A DNA stretch of 64,000 nt from the NCBI GenBank assembly GCA_000091205.1, contig AP006485.2, one strand, 5' to 3'. Source of the stretch: Cyanidioschyzon merolae. Lineage: Eukaryota. The position numbers and the translations under genes were made by a program. Positions 39,720 through 64,000 of the stretch are shown here, piece after piece. A model generated the notes under the pieces. It was not told the origin of the DNA. It searched no databases and was given only the letters and a program-made list of their open reading frames with translations. Each line of letters starts with the position of its first letter. Positions within the stretch are counted from its first letter, which is position 1.

Positions 39720-39753
<34 letters not shown>

Positions 39754-42700
39754 TTAACGGGCTATCCGTCAGACGCACTAGCACGCCAGCACTCGTCACG
39801 CGCACCTGCAAGGAAACTGCCGTCTCCATGCCGGTCTGGGAAAACGCAGCAGGTGCTGTTTCTGGTGTCATCTCCGCTTTCCGCGCACTTGCATTCGCTT
39901 GCCACGGTGCGCCTAGCAGCAAGACGGTCTCTGGTAGACTGGTTTCGATCGCTTGACCTTGGAGGTTCCAACTCAGAAACTTACCGGTATGTGCATTCAT
40001 GAGGCAAAATCCATCCGGTGAGACAAAGCACGCTCGCCAGATAATCGGTTCACCAACGGAAACACCGGCGTCTGACATGCTCGTAGGTGGAGCGGTGTTA
40101 TCAGGGTGCCCTGAAAAGCGCCCCAGGCAACCGATGCGCGGCGTAGAGTCACCAGCACTAGCGCGTGCTGACTCCACCGAGGTCCCTGCGCGTCTCAGAG
40201 AGGAGGTGCTTCGACGCCGCCCAGGAGGTTCAGCTGAAGACCCGGGCACGCCTGCGGGGATCGGGTTTGCCTGGCGTTGAAGAGCACTCGCCTCTGTGGC
40301 TGGATACGGGAGCACAGAGACGGGTCGCAGCACTCCTGAGGGACCTTCGCTATCGTCGGGGCACCAGGCCAGGAGACTAAAGAGCGTCTCGTCATCGGGA
40401 TCAGTGCGCTTGACCAGGAACGTGCTGTACGCCGTGCTAGCTGCCGAATAAGGCGGGGCATCGGTGCTCGCCAGCGCCAAAACGTATATGGGTATGGAGG
40501 CATCCGCCTGGAGGACACACGGCAACTGCGTAGCGCTATCCCAGAGCGTGATCAGCGTACCCGGCTGCGGACTCATGCCAGGAGCTGGGCATTTTCTGGG
40601 CGAGAACACAGGCCGCTGGTTACCAAAGCTGGATCGCTGCTGCTGCTGCTGCTGCTGCTGGCCAGGTACTGCCCTGGACAAGTGACGCTGGGTGCCACTG
40701 CGGCGCCGATGACTCAGTGCGGAGGGTGCTGGAGCGCCCAGCGCACCCCCCAGCACTGCAGCAAGAGCGTCCCAGAGCAAAGGCACGCTGCTGACCCCGG
40801 CTTGCGCACTGGACCGCAGGCGAAAGGCGCCCGAACCTGCCGGCATTGCACTGAACGAGCCGGTCCCAGTACCTTCAGCAGCATTCGTATCTGGGACCAG
40901 CGTATGCGATGCAGGTGTATGCCCCGGTGCTGCTGCTGTACTTGTTACCGCTGTTGCCTCACGATGACCTTTGGGAGCGGACGCGCTGCCGGTACCCGCA
41001 CCTGCCTCGTCGCATAGAACATCACCTAACTCTGGATACGCTGGTGCATTGAGCCTCGTCGACCAGCGGTGCAGCCAACTCCGCCACAGGTCCATGTCTT
41101 GGCGGCAGAATATGGCGTCAAATGCGGAAGTCTGCAGCTCAACCTGCACCGAGAGCAGAGGCGCTCCTCGCGATGCTGCTACTGCCGTATAGTGGCCATG
41201 GATGCGCACGCCAACAGAGCACGGGGATAGGAGCACAAGCGGCTTATGATCCGCAATGCGTTGACGGACGAATGCCTCGGGAGCATCCGCAGCAAACGAA
41301 AGTCTCCACTGAATCGGTGCAGTGCCTGCGTACGCCAACCCCAGTGCAGCATCGAGACCAGCTGACGCCAATACAAGCTGAGCTGGCGGATCCGTTGGCG
41401 AGCACAGCACCACCTTGGTATGGGCACCTCTCCAGTGCATCTCCAGCAGCAGCGAGGTCTCTGTCTTGGTCCACGACACAGAGCGAGGGGCGTCTGCGGG
41501 CGACGTTTCTTGCCACGTCCGCGTGCTCGTAGCAGCAGCAGCATCATCAGCAGCATCATCAGCAGCAGCATCAGCAGCAGCATCAGCAGCATCATCAGCA
41601 GCATCAGCAGCAGCTGTGGCAGCAGTAGCATCAGTGGTACCGGCAGCGGGTGACTTGTTTCCGGGGCATATAGGTTTGCGCGATGAACGCCCGGGAACTT
41701 TTTCATCTCGTTGACTCGCCCGGGAACGTGTTGGCATCTCAGCTCCCGTCGATAACGTGGATACTTTGGGCGATACCGCGACTGCGCCGCGCCCTACACG
41801 ACGTGCTGCCTGATGGAGGCTCCACCAGCGCTGCCAGCAAGCTGCGTACTGCCATAAAGCCGCAGTCAAATGCAGCTCGATATCGGATATCTCGATGAGG
41901 CAGCCCAGTCGCACGGATGCCGTCGTCGACGAACTGAAGTGCGTCGAGTAGGAGGAGGAGGCCTCGGCTGTTGCCGCTGCGCTGCCCCAAACACTTCCAG
42001 CTGGTGCCGCATACGCCAGCGCAAGATGCGCAGAGCCACCACAAGGAAGCAGAATAGGAACGCTGGCACACCCGAACAGTGCCGCTGCATCCGCGTCCAG
42101 TTCAAGGCTCATGCTCAGCTGCTGAACAGCAATGTCGTACAGGAGAGGCGGCTGATGCGAAGCAGCCAGGTTCTCGGGCATCGCCCGGCTGCTCGTGCCC
42201 GTGCTGGACGCTGCAGCACATCCACCTGAGCGATGCTTTAATGCCAACCGCTGTTGAACTCGATCGAGGTCGCTGAAGAGGCGCAACGGGTCGCGCAGCT
42301 GGCAGCAAGTGCCGCTCCGAAGTGAAAGCCTCCCCAGCTGAACCTGCACAGCGAATGCATCCAAGCGGGTGCCACGACGCAGTCGCTCAATGACATGTAT
42401 CCAACGATGCCGCGGTGATGTCACCGGTGCCGTTGCCTCGCTACTGGTGGGCGAAGCGCGTTCACGTATAAGCCCCAAGCCCTTGGCTAAGTTAGCAACT
42501 ACGTAGATGCGCGGCGCCGACACCATGATATCCAGGTCCAGGGTGCTCGCCGCCTCCAACAGCGTTTCACTATCCGGCAACGCTGCAGCGATCGACGTGC
42601 GATACGCAGCGAACTGTGCCTTGGCTTCCTGCATCCAAACGCGCCAGGGTATGTTCTGTCGTCTGCCAAAGGCAAGTACATGTCGAACGAGTGCCGGCGA

Positions 42701-45361
42701 TAGCAGCAGAACCAGCGGCCTGCTGCGTACGCTCATCCGATGTCGCGTTTCAACATGTGAACGCGCTGGTGCCGTCAACGCTGTCGCATCGCCAGACCAA
42801 CTGGTGTTGCGTATTGGATGCTGGTGCTCATAGGCGAGGCGCAACAGTGCTCCTGACGATGCGTCGGTGCTTGCGTCGACAAAGACTACTGGATAAAGGT
42901 CGTCGTGTAGGTGCTCACGCGCCTGCACAACAACATCACCCGTTTGTAGCGAGATGCACGTGCGATTGGGTGTCCTCTCCAAAAGCAGATGCAGATGTCG
43001 GAGTTGGATGTCGGCGAAAGGCCTTCGATCTGAAAGCTGCAGGCTCATCTGGGTATCGTCGATCCGCAATTCGATGCGGAGACCTGCAGCATCTGGTTTC
43101 CACTGAATCTGCTGGAGCGTAGACTCCAAATCGGTGACTTGCTCATCCACGTGCTCCTGTACAAAGCCTTGAAAACGTTCACCGAGCTCCTGCGCCAAGC
43201 TAGCCGGCTCAACGACGATTTTGGATTCCTCGCGCTGCTCCGAGTCTAGCCGAGCAGAGCGCGCATCAGCCTGAGGCTGGTGCTCGGATGGTTGACACAA
43301 AGTGTCAGTAGTTGCGGGCCAAATCCGCTCCACTGCGGTGTGACGCTCTTCGCGAGCAGCAGGAGCAGCAGTCGACCTAGCAGTTGGCGTCGGTATTCCC
43401 GATGTGACGTCCACACCAGACGCTGAATCCTTTGTCGCAGGTGGCGCTGAGCTCCAGCCGAGTGTGGTGGAGATCCAGCCCAGCCAGCCGGTCGACGCTG
43501 TGGCCCCAGTTCGAGCTGTTTCTGCTGTCCCGCTGGCGTCTTCAGCGGAGCCAACGACTGCGGAAACAGCTCGACCTTGATCAACGATGCTGCGTTTGGT
43601 GTTCGCTCCTGGTGTATACTGAGGCCTTTCGGCGTTAGGCTGCAGTGGTGCTCGTCTGCTGGGGTCACGTTCAAGCGCCCTGTGGTATCGTTGTATTGCC
43701 AGACTCCGAAAGTAGCGGATTTCATCGATGCTTAACTGTTGCTCCAGAGCTGCGACTGCCTCTTCCAAGTCCGCTGGATCGTTGGCAAGAGAGAGTGCCA
43801 GAGCTTCCCGTGTACCAGTGGATGCTTGGGTGCGGTCATCAGTTTCCAGTTTCACTCGCGTGTAGAGCGATATGTAGCGTTCTTTGCGTCGATGCCAAGC
43901 ACCAAGATCCTCGAGCACGAATGGACGATACAAACTGGATACAAATGCTCGAACACAAAGAAGCGCAAATTTCCAACGGTTTCGCGCCCTACTCGGGTGC
44001 TGCTGCTCTGTCGCCTCTAGGGCCTGGATATCGCGCGGAAGCTCTGCGGATTGCCGCTCCTCCGGAGGAGGCATCCAGTTCAGATATCGTGAGCGATAGC
44101 GATTCCCAAACATCCACAGATAAGGTTCGGGGGCGTTCATGAGCACCAACAAGTCTGAGCGTCGTCGCCATCCCAACCAGGTTGCGTAGCTCTTCAGTGC
44201 CGTCACCGTCTCTACCTGAGACTGTTGCAGTTGCAAACACCAGCGTTCAACACCGAGACAGAGTGAGACTCTGGTGGTGCTGTCGCTCGTCGACTGGCCA
44301 GACGAATCGTGGGGCGCTTCTGTATCCGTCGCCAAGGTGCTTGGGTACGGTCGCTCTATTCGTAGTCCGACATACCCATAGCTGGGCCTGCACAAAAGAA
44401 AGGGTTCCATGATCTTCGCGAAACGCTCATAGTGCTCCGACAAAGATTCTCCCGCTAAGGCTGTGAATGCGGCATCCGCTGGCGTCGACTGCGAGCGATG
44501 CTGGCTCCTCATTGGTGTCAGGTAGCAGGCCAGACCATGCACCCGTAACTGTCGATCGAGGATCAAGCGCATCCTGGGTGAGGTCGCGGCCTCATTCTGG
44601 GTAGGATGATCCAGATGAGGTCGCCATTCATGACGATAATCGGGGTCTGTCGACTTATCAGAAGCAGCGGCATTGCTATCGATCAGGCTGAGTTGCCGGA
44701 GCATCAATCCGCAACTGCTCTTTCGTGTGCCTTGAGACCGCCTCCCTTCGAGCAGGTTTGTTTCCGGTTCGACAGCGATGAAGTCGACATGAATATGCAC
44801 CCGTTCTATCTGCAACTGTAGACGACGAAGCAGAAATGCAGTGGCTCTTCCAGCAAATGTCTGCAGCCAGCCGCCGTCTCGAGCGCCTCCTGTCGAGGCA
44901 CCGTTGTGCTTGCTGGACGCAGGCAGCGTCTCTTGCGAGAGCTGCTGCTCTCGTGTCGCAAGTGTCCGAGCCCAAGACTCGAGACTCTGACGCTGCTCCT
45001 CGTCGTCTAGGCGGAGAAGTTCCGCTCGAGTGGTCTGAAACGAGTCAGCGTTGTTACTGGGGGCTTCACCCGGATACCAGCACAGCTCCAGGTACACGTC
45101 TGCGATGCTGATGCTGATGATTCCATTCCACCGCGCTTGGATGGATAGCGTGCCTAGGCCAGCCCGTTGGAGTTGAAGTTCTTTGATTCCGAGATCTTGA
45201 CGCCAATAGCGCTCGACCGCACCGGTTTCGAGTTCGAGATCGTGAACCTCAAAGTAGCCCCGCTGCCCTAAAGCGATTAGGACTTGCTCCCGATCTAGTC
45301 CACCTCGAATAAACGTACCGACCTTGCTCGCAAGAAATCGATACAGCGCTTCTTCGAGCAT
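34910..45361 (-). CDS. VPS13-like bridge-like lipid-transfer protein (chorein-N family), 3483 aa
   Basis: Track ORF. The N-terminus MLEEALYRFLASKVGTFIRGGLDREQVL...GLGTLSIQARWNGIISISIADVYLEL matches the chorein-N pattern of VPS13/ATG2 (MLE...fd..ql...G.lG.L...PW..l...pv.i.i.dvYLL). The size fits VPS13. It has many low-complexity inserts: DAADDAADAAAD, (NG)n, poly-Q, poly-T/S. Confidence 0.6.
41520..41640. repeat. imperfect (CAGCAGCAT/CAGCAGCAGCAT) trinucleotide array inside the VPS13-like CDS
   Basis: Direct run seen in the sequence. It encodes a D/A-rich acidic low-complexity tract on the minus-strand frame. Confidence 0.7.
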
Positions 45362-45439
45362 CGAATTGAGTTGGTGTCAAGCAAGTGATACGTTGCTCGA
45401 CGAGTAACAGAACCGGACGACGGCCACGCACCAAACGCC

Positions 45440-46050
45440 GTTCTGAAGCAAAACGTTGTCGCCGTCAGCGGTGGACAGTTGTGGCGAGAAACTCGCTATG
45501 GACAAGACGTCCCCAACTGACGTGCAGACGCCTCCCCGCCGGTTTGGACCGGCCACCCACAACTGATTCCAACTTTTTTTTTTAATATAGTTCCACTTTG
45601 AGCGGTTGTCCCTTAAAATTCTCTCTTGTCCACTCTGGAGGTCTTCTCTCCAGCACCGCACATCTCCTCATATTGATTGCTGCGTTCAGGTCTCGGTTCA
45701 CGAACTCCATACGTCCACTGCCTCTTGCTAAACTCATCATTGCGAGCAGTCCTGGCACTCGCGCCTTCTGTTCCACGACAGTCTTGTCACCTTCTTCTTC
45801 TGCTTGGTTCATTGCTGGTCTTCTCTCGATGGTCGACGAGAAGAGAAATTTTTCTATTTTCACCGGTACCTGGCAATGGCGGCCCTCCAGAATCCCAGAC
45901 TTCCGTCTTCACACCTCTCCCTCGGTGTTTTTCCTCAAATAAACGCAATTCGACCACGTCTGCTATCAACTCGCGAGAGAGAATTTGACTACACGCACCT
46001 GGGGGTATCACGCAATTGAGCTGAGAGATTATACCAAGCGAAAACACTCC
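45440..46050 (-). mobile_element. truncated remnant of the TnpB/Fanzor-like element family: 3'-terminal conserved segment plus the RuvC-III end of the ORF only
   Basis: 45440-45700 aligns at the nucleotide level to 47838-48100, 54631-54890 and 60670-60930. Track ORF 45582..45863 (-) reads ...[44 protein letters not shown], the RuvC-III tail. No RuvC-I region follows. It ends ~80 bp upstream of the VPS13-like start codon. Confidence 0.55.
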
Positions 46051-47764: not shown

Positions 47765-50150
47765 TCACCCGTACAAACCTCTGAAACGTACCCTGGGTGG
47801 ACACTCGCACCAACACAAAACATCTTTCCAAAGACAAACGTTGCCCCCGGCCGTGTACAGTAGTGGCGAACGCGCCCTAGGCAAGGGGTCTCCAACTGAC
47901 GTGCAGACGCCTCCCCGTTTTTTTGGACCGGCCACCAACGTCTGCTTCCATTTTTTCTCATATAGATCGACTTTGAGAGGTTGTCCAATAAAATCCTCTT
48001 GTGTCCAGTCTGGAGGTCGTTTCTCCAGCACCGCACATCTCCGTATATTGATAGCGGCATGAAAATCTCGGTTCACGAACTCCATACATTTCGTGCCGTT
48101 GGGAGCTGTACTCACCAATACGAGTAACCCTTGAACTTTCGCCTTCCTTTCCAGTTGCTCCTCCGCCAGCGGTCCGTACTTTTGCAATTTCCTCAGCGCT
48201 CTTCTGGCACTTTTCCATCTCCACCCTCTGAAGCGTGCAGCCCAGTTCCTGGTATGTATAGGACGTCCGGAACTCATATACAGGTATCGTAACGAGACGC
48301 CGGGCGCACTCCTTGTACAGCTTCGTCGCTGGAGCTGGCGTAGTTCCTTTTCTGTTCTTCCAGTGCCTTGCTCCATACGCTTCTACGAGCTTCTGACGGT
48401 CATCCTCCTTGAGGGCGCTCAACTGATTGAAACAATTCGCAAACGCCCGCTGCTTCACACCGTATAGATTCATTCGCAGACGAGCCCACCGGGGCTTTCT
48501 ATACTCCTCCCACAGCGCATCCCAATGGGCAACACGAAATTCCATGAATTTCCGAAAAGCTTCACAGACCGCTCCGCGGCTCGTCGCCTCGCTCAAAGCT
48601 TCCAGGTGATGCTTTATTCCTGCATTCCACGTAACGATTATCATCCTTGCATTCACTACAACGGATTCTCGATAGTATCTCGCTCTCGAGAACCTCAGCA
48701 GACGCATGTCTTTCTGGCGTAAATTACCGTCCATGCCATCTTCCGCACGCTTCGGTGCTGCGATGGTGATGATATTCGTGTTCCCAGGATCCGCGCCAAC
48801 CACAATGTCTTTATCCTGCACTTCCTGTGTGGCAGGATCCGCCTCTTTCTTTCCTTGATGCTTCGTCGCGTCAACCATAAAGTCGTTATCCTGCACATTC
48901 TGTTCGGCAGGATCCGCCTCCTTCTGACCTTCATCCTTCACCGCGCCAACGACACGGTCGTTATCCTGCACTTTCTGCATCACAGGTTCCGCCTCTTTCT
49001 CTTTTTCATCCTTCACCGCGTCAGCGACAAAGTCGTCATCCTGCACCTCCTGTGTCGCAGGATCCGCTTCTTTGATTTTTTAATGCTTCGCAGAGGGCGA
49101 AGCGAAAGGCACAATCGGACGGTCCACTTTCAAGCGCCGATAGTGTACATACAAGGTTACTCCATCGGTCTCGATCAACGCAGTGAATACCTTTTGGCTT
49201 CTCACTTTGAGCCGTTTGAAATTGAAGATGTTCTTCAAGTACGTCGCCCGGTTTTCACCGGTGAAGTCATCCCTGCTAACAGTGAACACTGGACTGATCT
49301 CCTTCATGATGCCGTAAAACACGTCCGAATCGATATTCACGAAACGTGACTTGATGCTGCACATTGGAACCACGTTGAAGCGCTTACCCATTAGGAAAGC
49401 CTTCCGTCTCTCCTACTCTTCATTTGTCTTTTCGCTCAGGTTCATCTCCGCTTCGCGTTCGAGCTCCGGGTCCAAGAACACAGAATACCGTACGACGATG
49501 CGATAGTATCTCCCCTGATCCTTTTTCAACTCTGATATCTTTTCTGTTGGATTCACCAGCCCCAAGATTGCACGGCGCTCTTGTATAGCCGCACGGATCA
49601 CAGATGCTTCATTCGTGCTCCTGCGTGACGTCTTCTTGTCGACAAATTCGACCTCATCTTCATGCTTGCGATCTTTCGTTATGCCATTGATAGTCGCCTA
49701 TATTCATTTGAGAGAGCTGCCTGGGTAGAGTGCAAAAACGGCGCGTATCATGAAACGTTCGAGTTTCACGATCACGTGACTCTCCAGTTTCGTGATGTAC
49801 TTCGTCGCCCCTTATATGTAAACATTCGAATCACCCCTGTATGGAGTACTGTTGAAGCTGTAGAGGGGATGTTTTTCGTAAAGGCCATGCACTAGCACAT
49901 TTTCCCTCCGCGTTTCCGCTGTTCCAAGCATCAGGTATCGAATAAAGGTCTCGTCGAATAACTCGTCCAGAATCTCGACCGTTTCCATGTTCGCGACGTC
50001 TTCGTACATCTCCCTCGCCAAATGCATCAGTCTTGACGACGCCTTGAAAATACTCTTGGAGTACGAATCGAAACGTTTTTCGATAGCGTCTCGCAACTTT
50101 TCCCTGTACGGATCCTTGATGTGTCCAAGAAGAAAGATTTTCACCTCCAT
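47765..50150 (-). CDS. TnpB/Fanzor-like RuvC-nuclease ORF, copy A. It is interrupted into segments 49812..50150, 49413..49601, 49080..49391, 47958..49046 and 47765..48376; intact versus pseudogene status is unresolved.
   Basis: RuvC-I is [18 protein letters not shown] (cf. TnpB vGIDlG.kn.a). Further on are ...[20 protein letters not shown] (the TS + Cys region preceding the zinc finger), then [25 protein letters not shown], which is the canonical RuvC-III RDxNAAxNI. The N-terminal ~430 aa ([27 protein letters not shown]...) have no recognised domain. The track's 203-aa segment reads out of the element into flanking DNA, so the natural stop is probably near ...LYEKKW, as in copies C and D. Confidence 0.5.
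47838..48040 (-). ncRNA. candidate omega-RNA / right-end scaffold of Fanzor-like copy A (the conserved 3'-terminal non-coding segment)
   Basis: About 200 nt downstream of and overlapping the RuvC-III coding end. It is conserved at the nucleotide level in all four copies, including copies C and D where the protein frame has already terminated or shifted. It contains a conserved hairpin ctggag-gtcgttt-ctccag and a conserved gacgtgcagacgcctcccc core. The position, 3' of the TnpB-like ORF and abutting the element end, matches where omega-RNAs lie. Confidence 0.25.
48780..49075. repeat. 66-bp tandem repeat x4 inside the Fanzor-like ORF (copy A). It encodes reiterated (V/N)QDND(R/F/I)(V/M)V(G/D)A(V/T)K(D/H)(E/Q)GQKEADPA units ending in the RuvC-I motif.
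   Basis: On the plus strand the unit reads gtcgttatcctgcac(a/t)ttctg...aggatccgcctc(c/t)ttct...tcatccttcaccgcg.... The same array is present at ~55580..55875 in copy B. Confidence 0.7.
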
Positions 50151-51022
50151 CTCATTCTACAGTCATCTTTCCCGCCGCCTTCGACGTAGGGCCTCTCGCT
50201 TTCAGTTCTTCTTCTCTCCTGTTTCTTCTGGACTCGGCACTGCTTTTTGTTTGTCTCTAGCGGCCGGCGACCCCGGCCCTCCAGGAGCGTCGACTTGCTT
50301 TTTCATAGCTTTCCGTTTTTTAGTTTTTTCTTGAAAAACAACGCTCTGTGAACCCTTCTGTTATATACTGCGAAAAACACTTGACTAGACTTGTTTGAAG
50401 TTTCAAACAGAAACGAACTTAAAGCCTGTACTTGGCTACGACCTGAACGGAAATACAACTTTTTACAGATGAACAACACGCTACTGATCCCAATCGCGTT
50501 TCCCTTCAACGAAGGCATACGCATCGTGTCAGTTGATTCCCCGATCTCCCAGATGCGATTACCGAGCGCGATGCGTGCGCCTCGCGAGACACCACGCCGA
50601 TCGATGAAGGACACGTGCCTCAAGCCCATAGTGCAAAGAAACAGAGCTCGCTCGGGGGCACGCCTGCGCTATCGCTTTTGGCGCGAAACGCGAAATCGAA
50701 ACCGCGCCTGCAGGGATCGTCTCGAACCGTTTCTCCTTCGCCGTGATCATCGATTGCCGCGGATTCGAGGCATGGTGCGGGGGAATTTGAATCGCTCGTG
50801 GGCTCTGTCGTTGCCGCTGCTGGACGTAAATATTTTTTTAGAGTTGGTGTTGTTCAACGGACGGCTGGGAACGGGCTCTTTCTCGTTCACGACACTAAAT
50901 ATTTTCCATCAAAAGAAGTTTTATACAAAGGTTTCCAAAGTATAATATCAGGATTTGCTACGCTCATGGTATTTTTGGAGAGCAATATACGTAGAGGCCG
51001 CCCAGGAGGTCAAGGCTTTCGG

Positions 51023-51215
51023 ATGAAGCCTTCGCTATTTATTATTTGTTTCATACTTTGCAGTGTGTTCGCGTCTCTCGTACGGGCAGCGACTGTGACA
51101 CCTACACCGACTGCGACTGCGACACCGACTGCGACACCGACACCTACACCTACACCTACACCGACACCTCCATCGGCTACGACACCGACACCGACACCGA
51201 CACCTCCATCGGCTA

Positions 51216-51252
<37 letters not shown>

Positions 51253-51275
51253 TCCATCGGCTACGACTACGACTA

Positions 51276-51306
<31 letters not shown>

Positions 51307-53416
51307 TCCATCGGCTACGACTACGACTACGACACCGACTGCGACACCGACTGCGACACCGACTGCGACACCGACTGCGACACCGACTGCGACACCGACT
51401 GCGACACCGACTGCGACACCGACACCTACACCGACTGCGACACCGACTGCGACACCGACTGCGACACCGACTGCGACACCGACTGCGACACCGACTGCGA
51501 CACCGACTGCGACACCGACTGCGACACCGACTGCGACACCGACTGCGACACCGACACCGACACCGACTGCGACACCGACTGCGACTGCGACTGCGACTGC
51601 GACTGCGACTGCGACGGCGACTTCTACGGCAACTCCGACACCGATTGCGACGATGACTCCGACAATTACATCATCGCCAACGATTACTGTAACAGCGTCT
51701 CCAACGACAGTGACGATGACACCGACGATGACTCCAACTGCAACAACGTCACCAACAATCGTGCCGACGACGATTGCCACCTCGATTGCGATATCCGTTC
51801 AGAATCTTTCTCTTTGTTTGGCCGTGGCGACGGATTTGCAGAACGATCTCGAGGCTCGCTTCACGGGCCTGGTAGTGAATGTCAGCGTGACTGATAACTG
51901 CGACACGGTCTTCGGTTCGGGCACATCAAGGCGCCTCGCCACCACATTAGACAAGAGCAATCCTCGTCTGGAACGAGCATTGGTGCGCACGTCGGGCGGC
52001 AGTGTTGTGACCTATGTGATTAAGATCTCAGGAGACACATCCCTCGCCAGTGATGCGCAAAGTGTGCTTCAAACTTTCACCGACCAGCTTTCTACAATTC
52101 TACCCTCTGGTGCGACACTTGCTATTATAACCCCGACACCGAGTGCAACGCCAACACCAGTTTGCACGAGTGAAATCTGCGGTTCTCCGGGCCAGTACAC
52201 AAACCGGGACGCTTGCGAGCAAGTCGGGTGCTGCTTTAACTCCCAGACGAACGCGTGCACCCTGAAGAGCGTCTCAGCGGCCTGCAGCGCTGTTCCAGTG
52301 ACGCAGCGCGTCCCCTGCGGCTGGAGCTACATCTACCCCGACGAGTGCACTGCGATACCGGGATGCTGCTGGCAGCCAACGGCGAACGGCATCCTGGCAC
52401 CCTGGTGCTACTACGACATCAACCATGCACCGCAGGCCTCTGTAGCGCTGCAGGAGGTGCAGGCACCGGTTCCCCTCTGCCCGTCACCGGGAGCGCAGCG
52501 CCAGCCGTGCGGCAACGCGGGCATCAACCAGTTTACGTGCTATGCCCAGGGCTGCTGCTACGACTCGCAGGCGCAGAACCAGTGGGTGCAGAACGGCAAG
52601 CAGCAGAGCGACTTTGCGTCGAACCCGTACTGCTTCCAGCCCGAGAAGACGTGCGCGGTGGGCGAGTTTGAGCGCCAGCCGTGCACGAACGCGGTGAATC
52701 AGAACCAGCAGCTGAACAATAACATCAACAACAACCAGTTTGTGCGTCTGCTGAACACGCTTCTGTACGGAGAGCAGCACGGGACGCAGCGCACGAGCTA
52801 CTCGCCGCAGCAGTGTCTGGAGGCTGGTTGCTGCCTGGGGCTCAGCAACGAGTGCTTCCAGCCGATGACCGAGTACGTGTGCCAGACCTACGGGTATGTG
52901 TCGAACTCGCTGAGCGGCACGACCGGCAACGTATCGAACTCGAGCTATATTCCGTGTGGCCCGGAGTGCTGCAACGCCGAGACGCAGAACTGCACGTACA
53001 ACCCGTTCAGCAACAACAACAACCAGCAGCAGCAGCAGCAGCAGCAATTGCAACAACTGCAGCAACAACAGGTGCTGCTGCCGTCATTCTGTGTGTGCAA
53101 GGACCCTACGAAGCAGTGCGGGACGTACCTGATCCCTTCGGATAACCTTGTGAACAAGGTGCGTTGCTGCCGCGCTGACGAGGAGTGCATCAACAACCAA
53201 TGTGTGGTGATTAGTCCAACACCGACTCCGAGTCCCGTGGCTGTGACAGCGACACCCTCTGCGACGGTGTCTGCAACAGTCTCTGCGACAGCTTCTGCGA
53301 CGGTGTCTGCGAGTGCATCAACGAGTGCATCAGCGAGTGCTTCAGTTTCAGCCTCTGTGTCGACGTCTGCGAGCGCCTCGGAATCAGCGACATCTTCAGC
53401 TCCACCGACTGCGTGA
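51023..53416 (+). CDS. secreted mucin-like protein: signal peptide, long Thr/Pro/Ala tandem-repeat region, then 3-4 trefoil (P-type)-like Cys-rich modules and a C-terminal Ser/Ala/Thr-rich tail
   Basis: Track ORF 50798..53416. The start is placed at the internal ATG 51023 ([29 protein letters not shown]...), which gives a classical signal peptide. Cys modules include [45 protein letters not shown], matching the trefoil C-x9-R-x2-CG...C...GCC(F/W)...PWC(F/Y) pattern. The other modules are [32 protein letters not shown] and [31 protein letters not shown]. Confidence 0.6.
51100..51660. repeat. coding tandem repeat: 12-nt (accgactgcgac) and 6-nt (acaccg) periodic array encoding (TPTA)n/(TP)n
   Basis: Direct periodicity; for example gacaccgactgcgacaccgactgcgacaccgactgcgac runs for >250 nt. 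Confidence 0.85.
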
Positions 53417-54564: not shown

Positions 54565-56950
54565 CTAGGTACTCTTCGCAAATACGTTCTGAATAAGCGA
54601 CGTGACGCGCCCGCACCGAACGCCTCTCAAAAGACAAACGTTGCCCCCGGCCGTGTACAGTAGTGGCGAACGCGCCCTAGGCAAGGGGTCTCCAACTGAC
54701 GTGCAGACGCCTCCCCGTTTTTTTGGACCGGCCACCAACGTCTGCTTCCATTTTTTCTCATATAGTTCAACTTTGAGAGGTTGTCCAACAAAATCCTCTT
54801 GTGTCCAGTCTGGAGGTCGTTTCTCCAGCACCGCACATCTCCGTATATTGATAGCGGCATGAAAATCTCGGTTCACGAACTCCATACATTTCGTGCCGTT
54901 GGGAGCTGTACTCACCAATACGAGTAACCCTTGAACTTTCGCCTTCCTTTCCAGTTGCTCCTCCGCCAGCGGTCCGTACTTTTGCAATTTCCTCAGCGCT
55001 CTTCTGGCACTTTTCCATCTCCACCCTCTGAAGCGTGCAGCCCAGTTCCTGGTATGTATAGGACGTCCGGAACTCATACACAGGTATCGTAACGAGACGC
55101 CGGGCGCACTCCTTGTGCAGCTTCGTCGCTGGAGCTGGCGTAGTTCCTTTTCTGTTCTTCCAGCGCCCTGCTCCATACGCTTCTACGAGCTTCTGACGGT
55201 CATCCTCCTTGAGGGCGCTCAACTGATTGAAACAATTCGCAAACGCCCGCTGCTTCACACCGTATAGATTCATTCGCAGACGAGCCCACCGGGGCTTTCT
55301 ATACTCCTCCCACAGCGCATCCCAATGGGCAACACGAAATTCCATGAATTTCCGAAAAGCTTCATAAGACCGCTCCGCGGCTCGTCGCCTCGCTCAAAGC
55401 TTCCAGGTGATGCTTTATTCCTGCATTCCACGTAACGATTATCATCCTTGCATTCACTACAACGGATTCTCGATAGTATCTCGCTCTCGAGAACCTCAGC
55501 AGACGCATGTCTTTCTGGCGTAAATTACCGTCCATGCCATCTTCCGCACGCTTCGGTGCTGCGATGGTGATGATATTCGTGTTCCCAGGATCCGCGCCAA
55601 CCACAATGTCTTTATCCTGCACTTCCTGTGTGGCAGGATCCGCCTCTTTCTTTCCTTGATGCTTCGTCGCGTCAACCATAAAGTCGTTATCCTGCACATT
55701 CTGTTCGGCAGGATCCGCCTCCTTCTGACCTTCATCCTTCACCGCGCCAACGACACGGTCGTTATCCTGCACTTTCTGCATCACAGGTTCCGCCTCTTTC
55801 TCTTTTTCATCCTTCACCGCGTCAGCGACAAAGTCGTCATCCTGCACCTCCTGTGTCGCAGGATCCGCTTCTTTGATTTTTTAATGCTTCGCAGAGGGCG
55901 AAGCGAAAGGCACAATCGGACGGTCCACTTTCAAGCGCCGATAGTGTACATACAAGGTTACTCCATCGGTCTCGATCAACGCAGTGAATACCTTTTGGCT
56001 TCTCACTTTGAGCCGTTTGAAATTGAAGATGTTCTTCAAGTACGTCGCCCGGTTTTCACCGGTGAAGTCATCCCTGCTAACAGTGAACACTGGACTGATC
56101 TCCTTCATGATGCCGTAAAACACGTCCGAATCGATATTCACGAAACGTGACTTGATGCTGCACATTGGAACCACGTTGAAGCGCTTACCCATTAGGACAG
56201 CCTTCCGTCTCTCCCAATCTTCTTTTTTTCTTCACTCAGCTTCATCTCCGCATTTCGCTCGAGTTCTCGGTCGAGAAACATGAAATAGCGCAGAATAAGA
56301 CGATAGTATCTTTCCTTATCTTTTTTCAACTCTGATGTCTTGTCTGTTGGATTCGCCGGCCCCAAGATTGCACGGTGCTCTTGTATAACCGAATGGATTA
56401 CAGAAGTATCATTCGTGCTGTCGTTAAACGCCTTCGTGTCGACGAATTCGACTTCACCTTCATGCTTGCGATCGTTCTTGATGCCGTTGATAATCTCCCA
56501 TATTCCTTTGCGAGAGATACCCGGGTACAGCGCAAACACGGCGCGTATCATGAAACGTTCGAGTTTCATTGTCAAATGGTTCGTCAGGTTCGTGAGGTTC
56601 TTCATCTCCCCATAGTCGTAAATACTCCGGTCCCCCTTGTATCGAGTACCCTCGAAGCCGTAAAAGGGATGTTTTTCGTGGAGGGCATGAACCCGCTCGT
56701 TTTCCTCCCGCGCTTCCACTGTTCCAAGCATCAGGTATCGAATAAAGGTCTCGTCGAATAACTCGTCCAGAATCTCGACCGTTTCCATGTACGTCACGTT
56801 TTCGTACATCTCCCTCGCCAAATGCATCAGTCTTGACGACGCCTTGAAAATACCCATGGAGTACGAATCGAAACGTTTTTCGATAGCGTCTCGCAACTTT
56901 TCCCTGTAAGGATGCTTGATATGTTTAAGAAGACAGGCTTTCACCATCAT
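54565..56950 (-). CDS. TnpB/Fanzor-like RuvC-nuclease ORF, copy B. It is interrupted into segments 56192..56950, 55881..56192, 55362..55847, 54767..55345 and 54565..55176, with one extra break relative to copy A at ~55350.
   Basis: The same RuvC-I, TS/zinc-finger and RuvC-III ([15 protein letters not shown]) motifs as copy A. The N-terminal 252-aa segment is continuous here, whereas it is broken in copy A. Confidence 0.5.
54631..54835 (-). ncRNA. candidate omega-RNA / right-end scaffold of copy B
   Basis: Identical to the copy-A 3'-terminal segment except for a few substitutions (tagttcaac vs tagatcgac). See 47838..48040. Confidence 0.25.
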
Positions 56951-57270
56951 CTCGTCGTACAGTCGTCTTTCTTGCCGCCTTCGACCTAGGGCCTCCCCCG
57001 TCGGTCCTTCTTCTCTCCTGTTTCTTCTGGACTAGGCACTGTTTTTTGTTTTTATTTCTGGCAGCAGGCGACCCTGGACCTACGGAATCGTCGACTTGCT
57101 TTTTCATAGCTTTTCTTTTCATTTTTTTTGTGTGAAAAAGAACGCTCCTTGAACCCTTCTATTATATACTGCGAGAAATCAATTGAATATGTTTACTTGA
57201 GGGTTGAGACACAATCGAACTGGAAACTATGATTTGTTACGACTTCCACGCAAATACAGCTTGCCCGTTA
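54631..57270 (-). mobile_element. TnpB/Fanzor-like element, copy B (~2.6 kb)
   Basis: It is near-identical to copy A over 54631-56200. Track ORFs 55881..56192 (-) and 55656..56150 (+) are identical to their copy-A counterparts. The 5' region (56200-57270) is ~80% identical to copy A. Confidence 0.6.
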
Positions 57271-58418
57271 GAACATCAAGAAAACGTGTCGTCACGGTCG
57301 CGTTTCTCTTCAAAGGCGACAGATGCGTCGTGTCTCGTAAGTGCCATACTTGGAGATGCACGTATCAAGCGCGCCATACAGGAAAAAGGACAGTGACCTA
57401 CGATTTACAAGAAACGATATAAAATTTTTTCCCGCTCTACGATAAGCGTTTAAGGGGAAACAGATCGCCGTATTATCGGAAGCTTATGTTCGAGGCGGTA
57501 GGTCCCGCGAGCCGGTCGAGTCTACCGGGCTAGAGCTCGGTATCCCTCTTAAGTGGCTGCTGCCGCTGCTGCTGCTGCTGCTGCAAGACCTGCGCAGCTC
57601 GTTCACAACGCATTTTATCCTGAGACTATGCACAGGATGCTGCGTTGGGCCTCGCCCTGGTCGCAGTGGAACCCTAGTATAGCGCTTCGCGCTGCCGTAG
57701 GTAGTGGGTCTGTCTGCCCATTTTGCATGTTTCCAGAATGACAAATAGCCCTGATTCCGTTTCAGGTGAATCATCCTCCCAGAGGACGCCCTTATTGGTA
57801 TGGCAAAGCCGTTCTGTCTCTGTACAGCACCTGCTTGAGCGGTATAAGCGCAACAGCGGGTGCTCACAACAGGCTCGGCGCTCGATAGAACATACGAAAC
57901 GACCAGTGTATCAGAGAGGAAGTATGGGTAATGGGACTTGAGGACAGGTGCACTATGACAGTGATATCCCCGGAAGCCATTATCCGTTCCGAATTCTGGG
58001 ATCCATGGGCAATGTAAACGTTTTTTCATCAAAAAGAAAAAACGCCCCGAGGCGGACTCGTCATCGAGACGCACATCCCTCTGGATCGAATCTCCGGAAG
58101 GCGCTTCTGGGCGATCGCAAAAGCCCTCAAGTGCATCTTTGTATTCTCAACGGATAGCATGCTTTATTCGGAGCGCTCAGTCTCGAGCGTTCCCTCTAAC
58201 TTTAAGCAATAGCTTCGTAGATCAGACAGCTGTGTTGTCAAAGAGCACTGTACCTAGTTTTGGCGAGGTCTATAGTGCTGGAGAACAAAACGATCACGGG
58301 TTTGTAGCGATCTCGGCACCAGTGCTAGAAACAACCCTGCACTGGAGCTCGTGCGATCTAAAACCTGTAGTCGGACTTTTTAGAAGATCTGTCTGGCAAG
58401 GAAACAAATCGTGGAACT

Positions 58419-59495: not shown

Positions 59496-60669
59496 GCATG
59501 TTGCCTGCGCATGGTAACGCGTTGGATGCGGATCGTTTACAGGGACGTTAATCAAATGCCTCGTCGAAGTGCGGGCTCTGCACAAGCGTGCTCGGTCTGT
59601 ACTCAAAATAAGCGGATGGACAAGGAGGACTGAACTATGCTGGATACCTATGCCAAACTGGTAGGTCTTGGCACCGTAGAAAAGGTGTGGAGGGGAGCGT
59701 CCGTAGCCATCTCGGCGAGCTTGTTTCAAATGGACAGCATTGCTGAAGGACCAGGTGGCACCAGAATTGCAGCTGCAGAGTAGCGTTCGCCTACTATCAT
59801 CATTGAAACCTGCTAGTCGTGTCATGGATACCGGACGTGCTGGAGTTCGCATCCGCAACAGCGAACAAGGATCAAATCAACTGACTCAAAATTCTCCAAA
59901 GCGATGCGTGGATGAAAGCTGGCGAAAGTTGCGGGTCTGGTACGGCATAACGTACGCTTACCCGGATGCCGATATGTATCGCGCCTGACCCGAGATACCC
60001 TGGTTCAGGTCAACCATTCTAAACCGCAGGATAAAAGTATGCCATGATTTAACGTTCACTGATGTTGGCTGGACGGCATCGCAACGCTCCACGAACCTGG
60101 GCGCGGCGCCGAAGGCTTAGTTTCCGAGTATGACCGTGACAGACTTTGCTCTATGCGTACGGATCTGGAAAACACGAGTCGAAAGTGTGCATCAGCACGC
60201 ATGGGCGACGAATAAAACCCTTAAAGCGACGTGCGAACAGTGACCTAACGATGCAAGTGGAACGAACCGAATACCCTGAGGTAGGTATGATGGCACAGCT
60301 TCTGCCTTGAGAGCAGCTGCACAAGCGCTTCAGTGCGGTAAAGCCGAAATCGTGCCGAAACGTCCGAGTCGCGTCAGCGCTTCTAGTGAACAGGAATGTG
60401 CCTCCAGCTTCTCTGACGTTCCTCTCGCGTCCCAGCAATTCTGGTACAAAGTTTCGCTCTATGCAGCACAGGCGCTGATGCAGCGCTCCTTCGGAAGCCC
60501 TGCCTTCCGCAAACTTGCACCGAGACGTTCCGTACGCAGCTATCGTGGTTATGCTTCAAAACCGGAACGGTATTGCAGTGTCTTGGAAGCGTCGGCTAGA
60601 GCTTCTGAGACCGAAACGTCTCGTAAGACCACCGCACCCGACGACAACAAACATCTTTCGAAACAAAAA

Positions 60670-63070
60670 CGTTGCTGCCGGCAGTAGACAGTACTGGCGA
60701 GAAACTCGCCCTAGACAAGAAGTCGCCAACTGACGTGCAGACGCCTCCCCGTCTTTTCCGCCCGGCCACCTACTGTGGGTACCATTTGTTCTTATATAGT
60801 TCCAGTTTAAGAGGTTGTCCAACAATGGACTCTCGTGTCACCGCTGGGAGCTTTTTGTCTATTCCCGCACATCTCCGTAGATTGATTGCAGCGTTAAAGA
60901 CTCGGTTCGCGAACTCCATACGTTTCTTGCGGTTGACAGTCGTACTTACTAATGCAAGTAGTCCACGAGCTTCTCCCCTCCTTTCCATTTCCTCTCCCGT
61001 CAGCTGTCCCTTACTTTTTTATATCATCAGGACTCCACTGGCACTTTTCCATCTCCATCTTCTGAAGAGTACATCCCAACTCGTGGTGTGTATACGATGT
61101 TCGGAACTCACCCACAGGTACCGTAGCGAGACCCAGTGCGCACTCCTTGCCCATTCCTGCCGTTGGAGCTGGTGGAGTCCCTTTTTTTCGGAGCCCAGCT
61201 CCCTACACCATATGTAACAACGAGCCTCTGACTTGATCCTATTTCAAGGCGTTCAATCGATTGAAAAAGCTCGCGAATGCGTGATGCTTACCACGGCACA
61301 GATTCATACGCAAACGTGCCCAGCGGTGCTTTGTATACTCGCCCTACAGCGCCACGGAATGAGCAACCCCAACTTCCAAAAATTTCAGAAAAGCTTGAAT
61401 GTCCGCTCATCGGCTCGTCACCACGCTCAAAGCCTCCAGGTGATCCTTCATTCCTACATTCCACGTAACGATCTTCTTCCTTGCATTCATTATACCGGAT
61501 TCTCGATAGTATCTCTCTCTCTCGAAAACCTCAGCAGAAGCATATGTTTGTGGCGTAAGGTGCCGTCAGTGCAATCTTCCCTTCGCTTGTGAACAGCGAT
61601 GGTTATGAGATTCGTGCTCCAGGGACTAAGGCCGACGCCAAAGTGGTTTTCATGGGGCTTATACGTTCCATAGCCCGTCAACCTGTGTTCGTTCTTCGGC
61701 AAGGGCCGTAAAGAAAACGGGATAGGACGAGCTGCCTTCAACCGCTGATGGTGTACACATATGTGCGCCACATCGAGATCGATTGTTCCAGTGAATAACC
61801 TTTTTTTGGCCGGTTCGGGACACTTGAAATCGAAGATATTCTTCTCGTAGGCGTCCCGATCTTCACCGGAGACCTATTTGTTGATTACATCGAGCTATGG
61901 ATAGATCTCTATCCTGAAGATGCAAAAGGACTATGGGGTCAATATACACAAAATGTGACTTGAACGCGCATAACCGACCGACATTGAAGCGCATCTGGAG
62001 AAGACTTCAATGTCGTTTCTCGCACTCGTCTTTTTTTCCACACTCAGCTCCATGCCGACCCTGCGATCGAGGTCTCGGACCGAAAACATGAAGCAGGGCA
62101 GGATAAGAGAGTAACAACTCTCTCCGTCGTTTCTCATATCCGAGAGTTTTCTCTTGGGTTGACATGACCCAAGACCGAACGATGTTTTAGAATAGTCGCG
62201 CGAATTACAGAAGCATCATTCATTATCCTGCGTGATGTCCTCTTGTCGACGAGTCTGATCTCCTGTTCATGCTGGCGATCGTTCTTCATACCATCGATGA
62301 TTGCAAGCATCCCTTCGCGAAATAGGCCATGGTACAGCACAAAGGCGACGCGTATCATGAAACAATCGAGGTTTGCCATTTTATGGTTCCTCACATTCAT
62401 AAGGCACCTCTTTGCCCTGTATTCGTAAATGTCTGCGTCACCCCTGTGTTCAGCACGGAAGACGAGGAATTTGGCGTAATTTTTGAGGAAGGCATGCACT
62501 CGCTCACTTATCCCCGATGTTTTCCCATTAAAAACAATCAGGTAGTTGATGAAAGTCTTTTGGAAAAATTTTTCCGGAAACATCACTTTCGCGATAAGCG
62601 TTACGTCCCGATGCAGGTCGCTGTCCAAATGCCAACGTCCTAAAGAGAAGATACAAACACACCCGGCGTACGAACCGACACGGTTTCTGATAGCGTCCCG
62701 CAACAATCAGTCGTACGGATCATTGATATGTTGGAGAAGATAAGATTCCACCACCATCTTGTCGTACAGAAGTCACAATTTCAGCCTTCGATGTAAGGCC
62801 CTCCCATGTTGCTTCTTCTTCTGTTCCTGACCCTCTTCGCTAAGCACTACGTCTCGTTTCTTTCTGACATCCGGCAGCACCGGCCACCCCAAACCCACAA
62901 CCTCCAAATACATAAGTCTAATTTTTGTTTTGGGAGAAAAACTCATTGGACGCTTCTGCTTTGAACGGCGAAAATAAGTTGAATACCCTTACTTAATGAT
63001 TGAAACGCCATTGGAGCCAAAACTATACTTTGCTACGATTCGATCAGAAATACAAGTGGCCCCGATAGAG
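60670..63070 (-). mobile_element. diverged member of the same TnpB/Fanzor-like element family, copy C (~2.4 kb, degenerate)
   Basis: Track ORF 60770..60988 (-) reads ...RMEFANRVFNAAINLRRCAG...GQPLKLELYKNKW, a RuvC-III tail with the catalytic D replaced. ORF 61490..61771 (-) contains GLSPWSTNLITIAVHKRREDCTDGTLRHKHMLLLRFSRERD, aligning to the RuvC-I region [44 protein letters not shown] 62134..62706 (-) aligns to the N-terminal domain at ~40% identity. The 3'-terminal ~200 nt (60670-60900) are ~75% identical to copies A and B. Confidence 0.5.
60770..62706 (-). pseudogene. degenerate TnpB/Fanzor-like ORF of copy C (multiple frame breaks; catalytic motifs eroded)
   Basis: See the copy C mobile_element feature. 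Confidence 0.45.
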
Positions 63071-64000
63071 CAGTCGCTCCAGAAGAGGTCATTACCGCGT
63101 TTCTATTGATCGGCGAGACGCACGTAGTGTGACGTGACGGCCAGATTTCGCGATGCGTTACCAGGACGCACGATATAGAAAATGCCAAAAAATTGACAAT
63201 ATCCAAAAAACGGGGTACCAAGTACTAACGCCACCTACTGTAGACGTTAAAAGGAGGAAGTCTTTGCGTATGGTCAAGCAGTGACATATAGGCGGAGGGT
63301 CGGCAAGCAGCGAGACTCTACCAACCTCTAATACCGGTTGACCATACAGTTGCGAGTGATGTGACACACCCTAGCATCCCATCCGAAAAAGAACAGATTC
63401 TGGAACAAGGAGCGGATATATTGCGTCTAAGCGTGACCTAGATTGCGGTAGACTAATGGTATAGCGCTTTACGCTATCGCAGGCAAAAGATCTGCAAGAA
63501 CAGCTTGAAGGCTCCCAAGAAAATAAATTTCCCTGATCCCATGTTGCATGAACCAAGACCCTTCCAGAGCGCTCAGTGGTAGGCCAGAGCTGTTCTGTTT
63601 GAAGAGTGCAACTGCAACGAAGAAAGAGAGATTACGGCGGGTGCTCAGAGCAGGTAGGCGGCGCAGGAGAGAAAGTCTGATACGATCAGTACAGCCGAGA
63701 TGAAGTAAATGCGACGGAAGGGAAAAAAACTGGAAAGCGTGATGGACGATTTTCCGAAACCAGTGTCGATCCAGGAATTTCGCCGGTCTAGCCAGTGAGC
63801 AAGTTCCGCCAGACCAAAAAAAGCATAGCGCCGGAGGTAATTCCCTAATGGCTCTGGTATGCTAAATGAAAAAAAAACATATGCATAGGAGCTCAGACGG
63901 TACCGCCGAAGGAAAATCCCTAACGAGTCCGGAATGGTAGACGTCAAAATCACAGACGCTTTCGCGCTGGGATCATCGCGTTAATGGTGGGAATGGGGGG

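Follow-up and report, generated by a model that had tools for sequence, protein, structure and literature searches.

A 136-nt module at the 3' end of the Fanzor1-carrying element CMe-1A of Cyanidioschyzon merolae is a candidate omega-RNA scaffold and transposon right end

A stretch of 64,000 nucleotides (nt) of contig AP006485.2 from Cyanidioschyzon merolae, referred to here as the window, contains a conserved segment that is shared by four repeat copies. From its sequence, this segment is the 3' end of CMe-1A, a known Fanzor1-carrying mobile element of about 3.2 kb in Cyanidioschyzon-type red algae. It ends in a 136-nt terminal module that begins 22 codons before the true Fanzor1 stop, spans the common TAG and finishes at the right end of the element. 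In active members of the family, this module is probably an omega-RNA scaffold that doubles as the transposon right end. This reading is favoured because the position of the module, its 22-codon overlap with the gene, the succession of a scaffold and a variable flank, and the presence of solo copies all match published Fanzor guide RNAs. The copies in the window are themselves four pseudogenised, decayed relics.

A single repeat was found four times in a self-comparison of the window, each time with its gene on the minus strand:

47806..50634, minus strand: copy A, CMe-1A Fanzor1 element without the TE-N2-like 5' part; open reading frame (ORF) with frameshifts and stops
54606..58030, minus strand: copy B, full-length CMe-1A with the TE-N2-like 5' part; ORF broken
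60639..63813 (left end approximate), minus strand: copy C, full-length, strongly diverged CMe-1A, from comparison with the consensus
45423..45775, minus strand: copy D, 5'-truncated fragment with RuvC-III and the module only; similarity from 45429 in the self-comparison

Copy A extends over 47806-50461 by similarity to copy B, and to about 50617-50634 by similarity to other copies. Copies A and B are 92% identical in the self-comparison, in which B is matched over 54606-57262, and copy C is detected from 60649 to about 62822 at 64-76% identity. None of the four ORFs is intact, each being interrupted by frameshifts and stops. When compared to the CMe-1A consensus, copies B, A, D and C are 86.6%, 86.1%, 83.9% and 80.9% identical, respectively, in the 3' 299 nt, and copies B and C are 77% and 67% identical in the 5' 900 nt. 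It is because of this match to the published consensus that copies B and C are considered full length and copy A is considered to be without the TE-N2 part.

CMe-1A was described in C. merolae by Bao and Jurka in 2013 as having about 150 copies, around 80% identical to a consensus of about 3 kb, without terminal inverted repeats and with target-site duplications undetermined; its 5' 635 bp are those of another element, TE-N2_CMe (PMC3627910). The family in the window shares the length of about 3 kb, the lack of terminal inverted repeats and of determinable target-site duplications, and the TE-N2-like 5' part, and its protein matches the 734-residue CMe-1 consensus, including the C-terminal tail. 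The 2013 paper predates the discovery of omega-RNAs and is silent on a 3' RNA module; the T-rich left-flank motif and the common orientation of neighbouring copies presented below are also absent from that account (PMC3627910). CMe-1A and its Fanzor1 protein are therefore already known, as is the omega-RNA principle, while no description of an omega-RNA for CMe-1 was found in the literature searched.

The ORF had been called TnpB-like in a first-pass annotation of the window, and matches of a profile of the wider family to solved Fanzor1 structures identify it as a Fanzor1 gene. A profile of 73 full-length relatives matches the Fanzor1 chain 9cf0 (Parasitella Fz1) at 5e-19, 8gkh (SpuFz1, Spizellomyces) at 1.9e-12 and 9cer (GtFz1, Guillardia) at 1.3e-7. 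These alignments span the RuvC motifs DPG…, DEFRT… and NRD.NAA.N, and the split RuvC D…E…D triad (DPG…, DEFRTS…, NRD.NAA.NI) is legible in copies A and B and conserved across the family. CMe-1 was classed as Fanzor1 by Bao and Jurka, whose motif is a C4 zinc finger (PMC3627910); in the stretch between RuvC-II and RuvC-III there are no CxxC pairs here, and an H-H-C-C arrangement is possible. A database search with a reconstructed RuvC-region query returned 264 close relatives of 60-78% identity, all of them metagenomic. The metagenome scan identified 447 related places, of which 80 loci were fetched, and a hidden Markov model search of the whole library returned 1418 cluster representatives; the 73 full-length relatives come from these, and each of them matches the window-family profile at an E value of 1e-43 to 1e-107. 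A PDB search with the window family alone (single sequence; narrow profile) produced no match, and Pfam scans of the element ORFs and close homologues produced no match to a TnpB family. In the Fanzor1 homology test the only Pfam matches were to DUF8286, plus one weak match to a Cas12f1-like TNB. An AlphaFold2 model built from a shallow alignment had a predicted local distance difference test score (pLDDT) of 37.

The segment that first drew attention, 203 nt at 47838-48040 in copy A, had been described as conserved non-coding sequence. Alignment of the 3' ends bears out that the four same-strand copies are alike at the nucleotide level throughout it, its invariant core (GGGGAGGCGTCTGCACGTC) is identical in 4 out of 4 copies, and similarity does continue past the stops of copy C (…LELYKNKWYPQ*) and copy D (…KVELY*). 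The description as non-coding does not hold, since intact relatives and the 734-residue consensus protein read on past …LYEKK. Because of this read-through, the invariant core is seen to encode GRRLHV within the true C-terminus. In intact relatives, about 60% of the segment codes for protein. Frameshifted coding sequence covers 48040-47880 in copy A, with the family-wide stop TAG at 47879-47877. Decayed coding sequence makes up about 160 of the 203 nt; the truly non-coding sequence is about 69 nt long. The part of the segment that lies outside the module is:

47944..48040, minus strand: remainder of the earlier segment, coding sequence downstream of RuvC-III; holds the CTGGAG/CTCCAG pseudo-hairpin and the A-run frameshift site

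The A-run (GAGAAAAAA) is an indel hot spot at which the frame is shifted in copies A, B and C, and the early stop of copy D is a TAA where the other copies carry GAG. Decay accounts for both the premature stops of C and D and the frame shift of A and B. Of 71 distinct copies, only 24 keep the frame between RuvC-III and the TAG. The run, at 47944-47960 and equivalent positions (GAGAAAAAATGG), is located just upstream of the module, and relatives use all three frames downstream of it; it could be either a site of simple slippage decay or a programmed-frameshifting site. The argument that a closed frame indicates selection on the nucleic acid fails, because intact members of the family have an open frame and those in the window are pseudogenes. 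The CTGGAG-N7-CTCCAG hairpin that had been put forward as structural is within the RuvC coding region (VLEKRPPE), has no compensatory changes in 77 sequences and shows covariation below that of shuffled alignments. It is most simply a by-product of the LE…PPE codons.

The module is composed of 22 codons with their stop and of a further 69 nt, at the end of which there is a sharp boundary. Similarity between the copies had been thought to stop at …CAACGTTT (47838), however column conservation runs about 30 nt further, to about 47808. A boundary at 47838 splits a terminal hairpin, the 3' strand of which lies within these additional 30 nt. The published CMe-1A consensus also halts within this hairpin (…GAAAGGCG; PMC3627910), with conserved, paired sequence running some 10-14 nt beyond it. 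Among about 90 copies from metagenomic relatives, coverage of about 88 is reduced to about 1 over 100 nt at the right end, whereas the 5' side is ragged. Right ends placed by the covariance model are at 47808 (A), 54608 (B), 45423 (D) and 60639 (C). Beyond the right end there are 51 distinct flanks, with a flat base composition from position 0 and no conserved motif. The location proposed for a guide RNA is therefore upheld: the module overlaps the 3' end of the ORF and adjoins a precise right end, with insertion-specific flank next to it.

A solo module of about 120 nt is present in contig L050 (2005-2122), just upstream of a full CMe-1 copy and beside a protochlorophyllide-reductase-like short-chain dehydrogenase/reductase gene. 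This block is co-linear with L034, L080, L014, L054, L055 and L048, representing at least five contigs at 75-82% identity, and the flanks downstream of the right end differ in all of them. Seven rows containing only the module had at first suggested a non-autonomous family of their own, or else a direct repeat at the termini; these are one locus in several related contigs.

The covariance model of the module has exactly four matches in the 64 kb, all on the minus strand and with E values of 1e-22 to 1e-26, the next being at E = 0.11. The four matches and their folding z-scores are:

47808..47943, minus strand: copy A module; 108.8 bits, E = 5.6e-23; folding z +0.31
54608..54743, minus strand: copy B module; 107.8 bits, E = 9.4e-23; folding z -0.32
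60639..60774, minus strand: copy C module; 107 bits, E = 1.4e-22; folding z -3.22, 0 out of 200 shuffles as stable
45423..45564, minus strand: copy D module; 121.3 bits, E = 8.4e-26; folding z -1.83

A recurrent single-sequence fold of the sense strand has four helices, P1 to P4. The closing helix, P1, pairs AGTAGT with ACTACT. P2 is a 9-bp hairpin formed from the invariant core, in which GAGGCGTCT pairs with AGACGTCTT, and P3 is a small hairpin of GGCGAG with CTCGCC. P3 is followed by a near-invariant linker within CGCCACTACTGTACAC and then by the bipartite terminal hairpin P4, which has about 19 bp and reaches the element boundary. There are two variants of P4, CGTCGTTCGAC-TTT-… and CAACGTTTTTC-TTTT-…, which differ at many positions and have registers offset by two columns. 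In copy A the helices are positioned as follows:

47943-47938 with 47864-47859, minus strand: P1
47913-47905 with 47891-47883, minus strand: P2, loop GCACGTCAGTTGG
47876-47865, minus strand: P3
47855-47812, minus strand: P4, terminal hairpin

Copy C is the best-folding module in the window, and copy D folds well too; copies A and B fold poorly because P1 and P3 are mutated in them. Across 66 modules the median folding z-score is -1.77 for the sense strand and -0.82 for the antisense strand (Wilcoxon p = 4e-7), and G·U cells outnumber A·C cells by 453 to 127 (3.6 to 1). Any structure therefore belongs to the sense strand, either as RNA or as the top DNA strand. Compensated pairs are present in P1 and P2, for example in P1 of copy D (AGTTGT/ACAACT) and in a metagenomic relative, L036 (GGTGTCT/AGACATC). 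In a model-fitted alignment of 75 distinct sequences, which is biased towards structure by construction, all five covariation measures are higher than in 500 out of 500 shuffles, with a covariation score of 0.143 compared to 0.120 for shuffles and 0.063-0.091 for slid partners. The check for covariation was thus positive on the model-fitted alignment, but negative with the MAFFT alignment and RNAalifold. Slid-partner controls on the MAFFT alignment are 37-55% paired, and an exhaustive stem search on conserved columns returned mostly spurious G/T-rich 'stems'. Overall, structural support for the predicted module is moderate.

Several observations argue against a functional RNA at this location. 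RNAalifold returned no consensus structure for either the whole 3' alignment or its trimmed version, and in the MAFFT alignment of 56 sequences pairing is 76.1%, compared to 75.8% when shuffled, with 113 out of 500 shuffles as high. Pairing over all cells is just 77%, P1 to P3 are uninformative because they are almost invariant, and the modules of copies A and B are no more stable than shuffled sequence. A scan of the module against Rfam produced only sub-threshold chance matches, and the covariance model does not find the module beside more distant relatives of the protein. No fully intact ORF is present among the loci examined. The module is also not more conserved than the ORF among copies (variability of 0.13-0.30 against 0.11), and in the co-linear set of copies conservation is 0.72 for the module and 0.80-0.83 for the ORF, indicating no extra constraint on the module in place. 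Finally, a purely DNA-level role for the hairpin accounts for the sharp end equally well.

The mean column variability along the 3' end of the element increases towards the flank:

RuvC coding part: 0.113
coding tail: 0.129
stop to linker: 0.153
P4: 0.30
flank: 0.56

Conservation of the module thus decays in part as expected of coding sequence, being at or below that of the ORF, yet there are two signs of nucleic-acid constraint. The last 12 codons, which form P2, have no third-position excess in variability (0.153/0.121/0.106 for the three codon positions), while the seven codons that precede them do (0.11/0.075/0.19). In addition, the non-coding 17-mer TCGCCACTACTGTACAC (0.081) ranks in the top three for conservation among 17-mers in the last 290 nt, level with the best coding blocks. 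The P2 codon pattern and the 17-mer both point to constraint at the level of the nucleic acid.

These data bear on whether the module has any function. It could have been passively inherited, through the common descent of young, neutrally decaying pseudogenes, with the helices arising from a G/T-rich composition. This would account for module conservation that is equal to or below that of the dead coding region, for the lack of covariation in the MAFFT alignment and for the failure of A and B to fold better than shuffles, and the explanation keeps some weight because the unbiased covariation is weak. It is nonetheless improbable, in light of the two P4 variants that have many differences and still both form hairpins of about 19 bp in shifted registers, the compensated pairs in P1 and P2 (copy D and L036), the asymmetry in stability between the sense and antisense strands, and a non-coding 17-mer that is conserved to the same extent as the RuvC motifs. 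The exact common end in 51 contexts also implies that some machinery reads the end.

An omega-RNA scaffold at the right end is in keeping with what has been described for other Fanzor1 systems. In SpuFz1, a scaffold of 75 nt is located after the stop and before the 3' inverted repeat and is accompanied by a 14-15 nt guide, and the GtFz1 omega-RNA overlaps 17 codons (PMC10432273). Conservation of the Fanzor RNA (fRNA) has been found to reach into the ORF, with 20 extra, solo fRNA copies in Chlamydomonas (PMC10530073). In common with the omega-RNAs or fRNAs of SpuFz1, GtFz1, PpFz1 and CrFNuc-1, the CMe-1A module stretches from the 3' end of the ORF as far as the right end of the transposon. It takes in C-terminal codons (22, compared to 17 in GtFz1) and has a conserved scaffold followed by a variable flank, with solo scaffold copies elsewhere in the genome. 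It differs in having no similarity, in sequence or by covariance model, to Rfam entries or to the 3' regions of distant relatives and in containing no terminal inverted repeat. At about 136 nt the candidate scaffold is also longer than the 75 nt of SpuFz1.

If the module is an omega-RNA, it would be transcribed with the Fanzor mRNA, or processed from it, as the scaffold. The RNA would start near AGTAGTGG or at an upstream processing site and would end 14-21 nt past the right end, and the 15-20 nt of flank beyond that end may serve as the guide. The T-rich motif of the left flank would act as the target-adjacent motif (TAM), which would lead the nuclease to cut the empty site. The same DNA, chiefly the terminal hairpin, is probably also the right-end signal, as in IS200/IS605. 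We infer these steps, from structure to RNA, binding and cleavage. With regard to the first-pass proposal of an omega-RNA and right end, the position, the predicted sense-strand structure and some covariation support it, whereas the hairpin that it named, its boundary and its selection argument do not stand.

The left ends of the elements are located directly after a T-rich motif. In 15 independent left-end junctions, T makes up 70% of positions -8 to -1 compared to a 19% background, with the consensus TTYTTTY. This tract is a candidate target site or TAM. The junctions in the window are:

50643-50635, minus strand: copy A 5' junction flank TGTTTCTTT; the T-rich motif is probable here
58048-58031, minus strand: T-run preceding the copy B left end, which starts GATGAAAAAACGTTTACATTG from 58030
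63814-63822, minus strand: GCTTTTTTT, preceding the copy C left end

No convincing target-site duplications were found around the four window copies. It had also been considered that the module might belong to a terminal repeat, either inverted or direct. The sub-terminal invariant 16-mer has no inverted copy in 636 kb, the consensus shows no similarity between its 5' 900 nt and its 3' 299 nt, and tests for terminal inverted and asymmetric repeats were negative; the module is therefore not an inverted or direct repeat of the 5' end. The only motif shared between the two ends is a short ACGTTT.

On the 5' side the family is a mosaic. At least four or five 5' regions that are unrelated to one another, including a TE-N2-like one, join the same body near …ATCGCGCTCGGTG, some 600 nt before the Fanzor start. 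Left ends of the TE-N2 type are found in either orientation, and may or may not be accompanied by the Fanzor body. Matches to the module are on the gene strand in 95 out of 95 cases in 636 kb, and about eight independent pairs of neighbouring modules (the window copies and those in L006, L019, L042, L046, L050 and L075) share one orientation, which could reflect strand-biased insertion or local duplication. More distant protein relatives of 30-40% identity from brine and other metagenomes (L082 541-1449 and L084 565-963) are without the module and lie directly downstream of Tc1/mariner-type DDE_3 transposase genes. This indicates that the same Fanzor1 clade rides different types of transposon.

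The features of the two ends raise the alternative that the module is only a DNA-level transposition signal, with its hairpin and linker recognised on single- or double-stranded DNA by a transposase acting in trans, for example through Helitron2-like rolling-circle or one-ended transposition. The razor-sharp 3' end, the ragged or truncated 5' ends with at least four unrelated 5' regions on the same body, the hairpin at the very terminus, the insertion after a T-rich tract with no target-site duplication found, and the single orientation of neighbouring modules would all be expected of such a signal, and the P4 variant and the type of 5' region tend to co-occur. The Helitron2-type Fanzor1 elements of Chlamydomonas (CRe-1/2/3) are alike in being inserted after TTTT, truncated at the 5' end and over-represented at the 3' end (PMC3627910), and they also have a 3' hairpin and no terminal inverted repeats. 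Their hairpin is, however, 10-30 nt from the end, rather than at the very end as in CMe-1A. Neither asymmetric terminal inverted repeats (there is no inverted 16-mer in the 636 kb) nor a 5' hairpin were found for CMe-1A, its termini are not TC...CTRR, and no related RepHel element has been identified and no RepHel or Y1 partner is known for the family. TE-N2 shares the left end of CMe-1A and is mobile with a 3' end of its own, in which there is no similarity to the module. The predicted structure also starts some 95 nt before the hairpin, within the ORF, and only one of the strands can form its G·U-rich helices. A signal acting on DNA alone is thus unlikely, although it is the leading alternative and deserves serious consideration; it is also compatible with an omega-RNA role, as IS200/IS605 elements keep both on the same DNA.

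Truncation at the 5' end and the lack of terminal inverted repeats would also be explained if the module were the 3' tail of a retroposed RNA, copied by a reverse transcriptase in trans in a LINE/SINE-like manner (long or short interspersed nuclear elements). Copies that are 5'-truncated with intact 3' ends, such as copy D, and the structured nature of the 3' tail agree with this. There is, however, no poly(A) or simple-repeat tail at the end, target-site duplications were not found, the left ends are defined and follow a specific T-rich target, TE-N2 is without this tail, and no reverse-transcriptase partner was seen. Retroposition is very improbable as the origin of the module.

The omega-RNA and right-end reading of the module instead resembles the organisation of TnpB in IS200/IS605, where the scaffold lies over the 3' end of the nuclease ORF and the right end, and where the right end also has a hairpin. 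Insertion 3' of a short motif that doubles as the TAM (predicted for CMe-1A), the lack of terminal inverted repeats and target-site duplications, and an orientation bias of insertion are common to both. The differences are that CMe-1A has a eukaryotic host, that no Y1 TnpA was seen, that its left end is without a recognisable matching hairpin and that many of its copies are 5'-truncated. A more speculative extension is that CMe-1A and TE-N2 represent a eukaryotic class that would move by a strand-specific single-stranded DNA route, either IS200/IS605-like or rolling-circle-like, with the module as right-end signal and omega-RNA scaffold and with a nuclease that homes to the T-rich empty site in the manner of TnpB. 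Insertion at TTYTTTY, the absence of terminal inverted repeats and target-site duplications, the terminal hairpin, the clustering in one orientation and the 5' truncations are supporting signs, yet on the whole this proposal is doubtful.

Other features of the window and of the family lie outside the module. The longest ORF across 81 loci is 747 residues, with an N-terminus that appears frameshifted. Within the Fanzor ORF, at 48717-49089 and 55518-55890, there are tandem 75-nt repeats coding for an acidic 25-residue unit, the copy number of which ranges from one to about six among relatives. The genes neighbouring the copies encode an alpha/beta hydrolase, a lactate/malate dehydrogenase (LDH/MDH), a trefoil-repeat protein and a 3483-residue product, a set that suggests a eukaryotic genome. 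The right end of copy A is directly upstream of the hydrolase gene. That of copy D is about 60 nt upstream of the ATG (45361) of the 3483-residue ORF (34910-45361, minus strand), which is intron-less and has low-complexity runs; its N-terminus may resemble the chorein/VPS13 N-terminal region. The ORF at 50798-53416 on the plus strand (872 residues) has three trefoil (P-type) domains and contains, at 51021-51780, an array of 12-nt tandem repeats with about 40 or more units; its product looks like a mucin-like secreted protein. Over the left end of copy B, at 57993-58081 on the minus strand, there is a sub-threshold Rfam match to the small nucleolar RNA snR75 (23 bits against a gathering threshold of 40, E = 0.34), which is probably due to chance.

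For the window, these results mean that it contains four decayed transposon copies, and that the 'conserved non-coding' signal is largely frameshifted coding sequence together with the end of the element. For the family, the module may give a way into how CMe-1A and TE-N2 transpose, a mechanism that is unclassified. If movement is by a single-stranded route, a complete 'TnpB logic' would have been kept in a eukaryote. Should the module prove to be a functional omega-RNA, it would be the missing RNA partner of a Fanzor1 family described in 2013, and the consensus 734-residue protein, the 136-nt scaffold, a 3' guide and the predicted T-rich TAM would together make a testable editor. C. merolae is a thermo-acidophilic model alga with easy homologous-recombination genetics.

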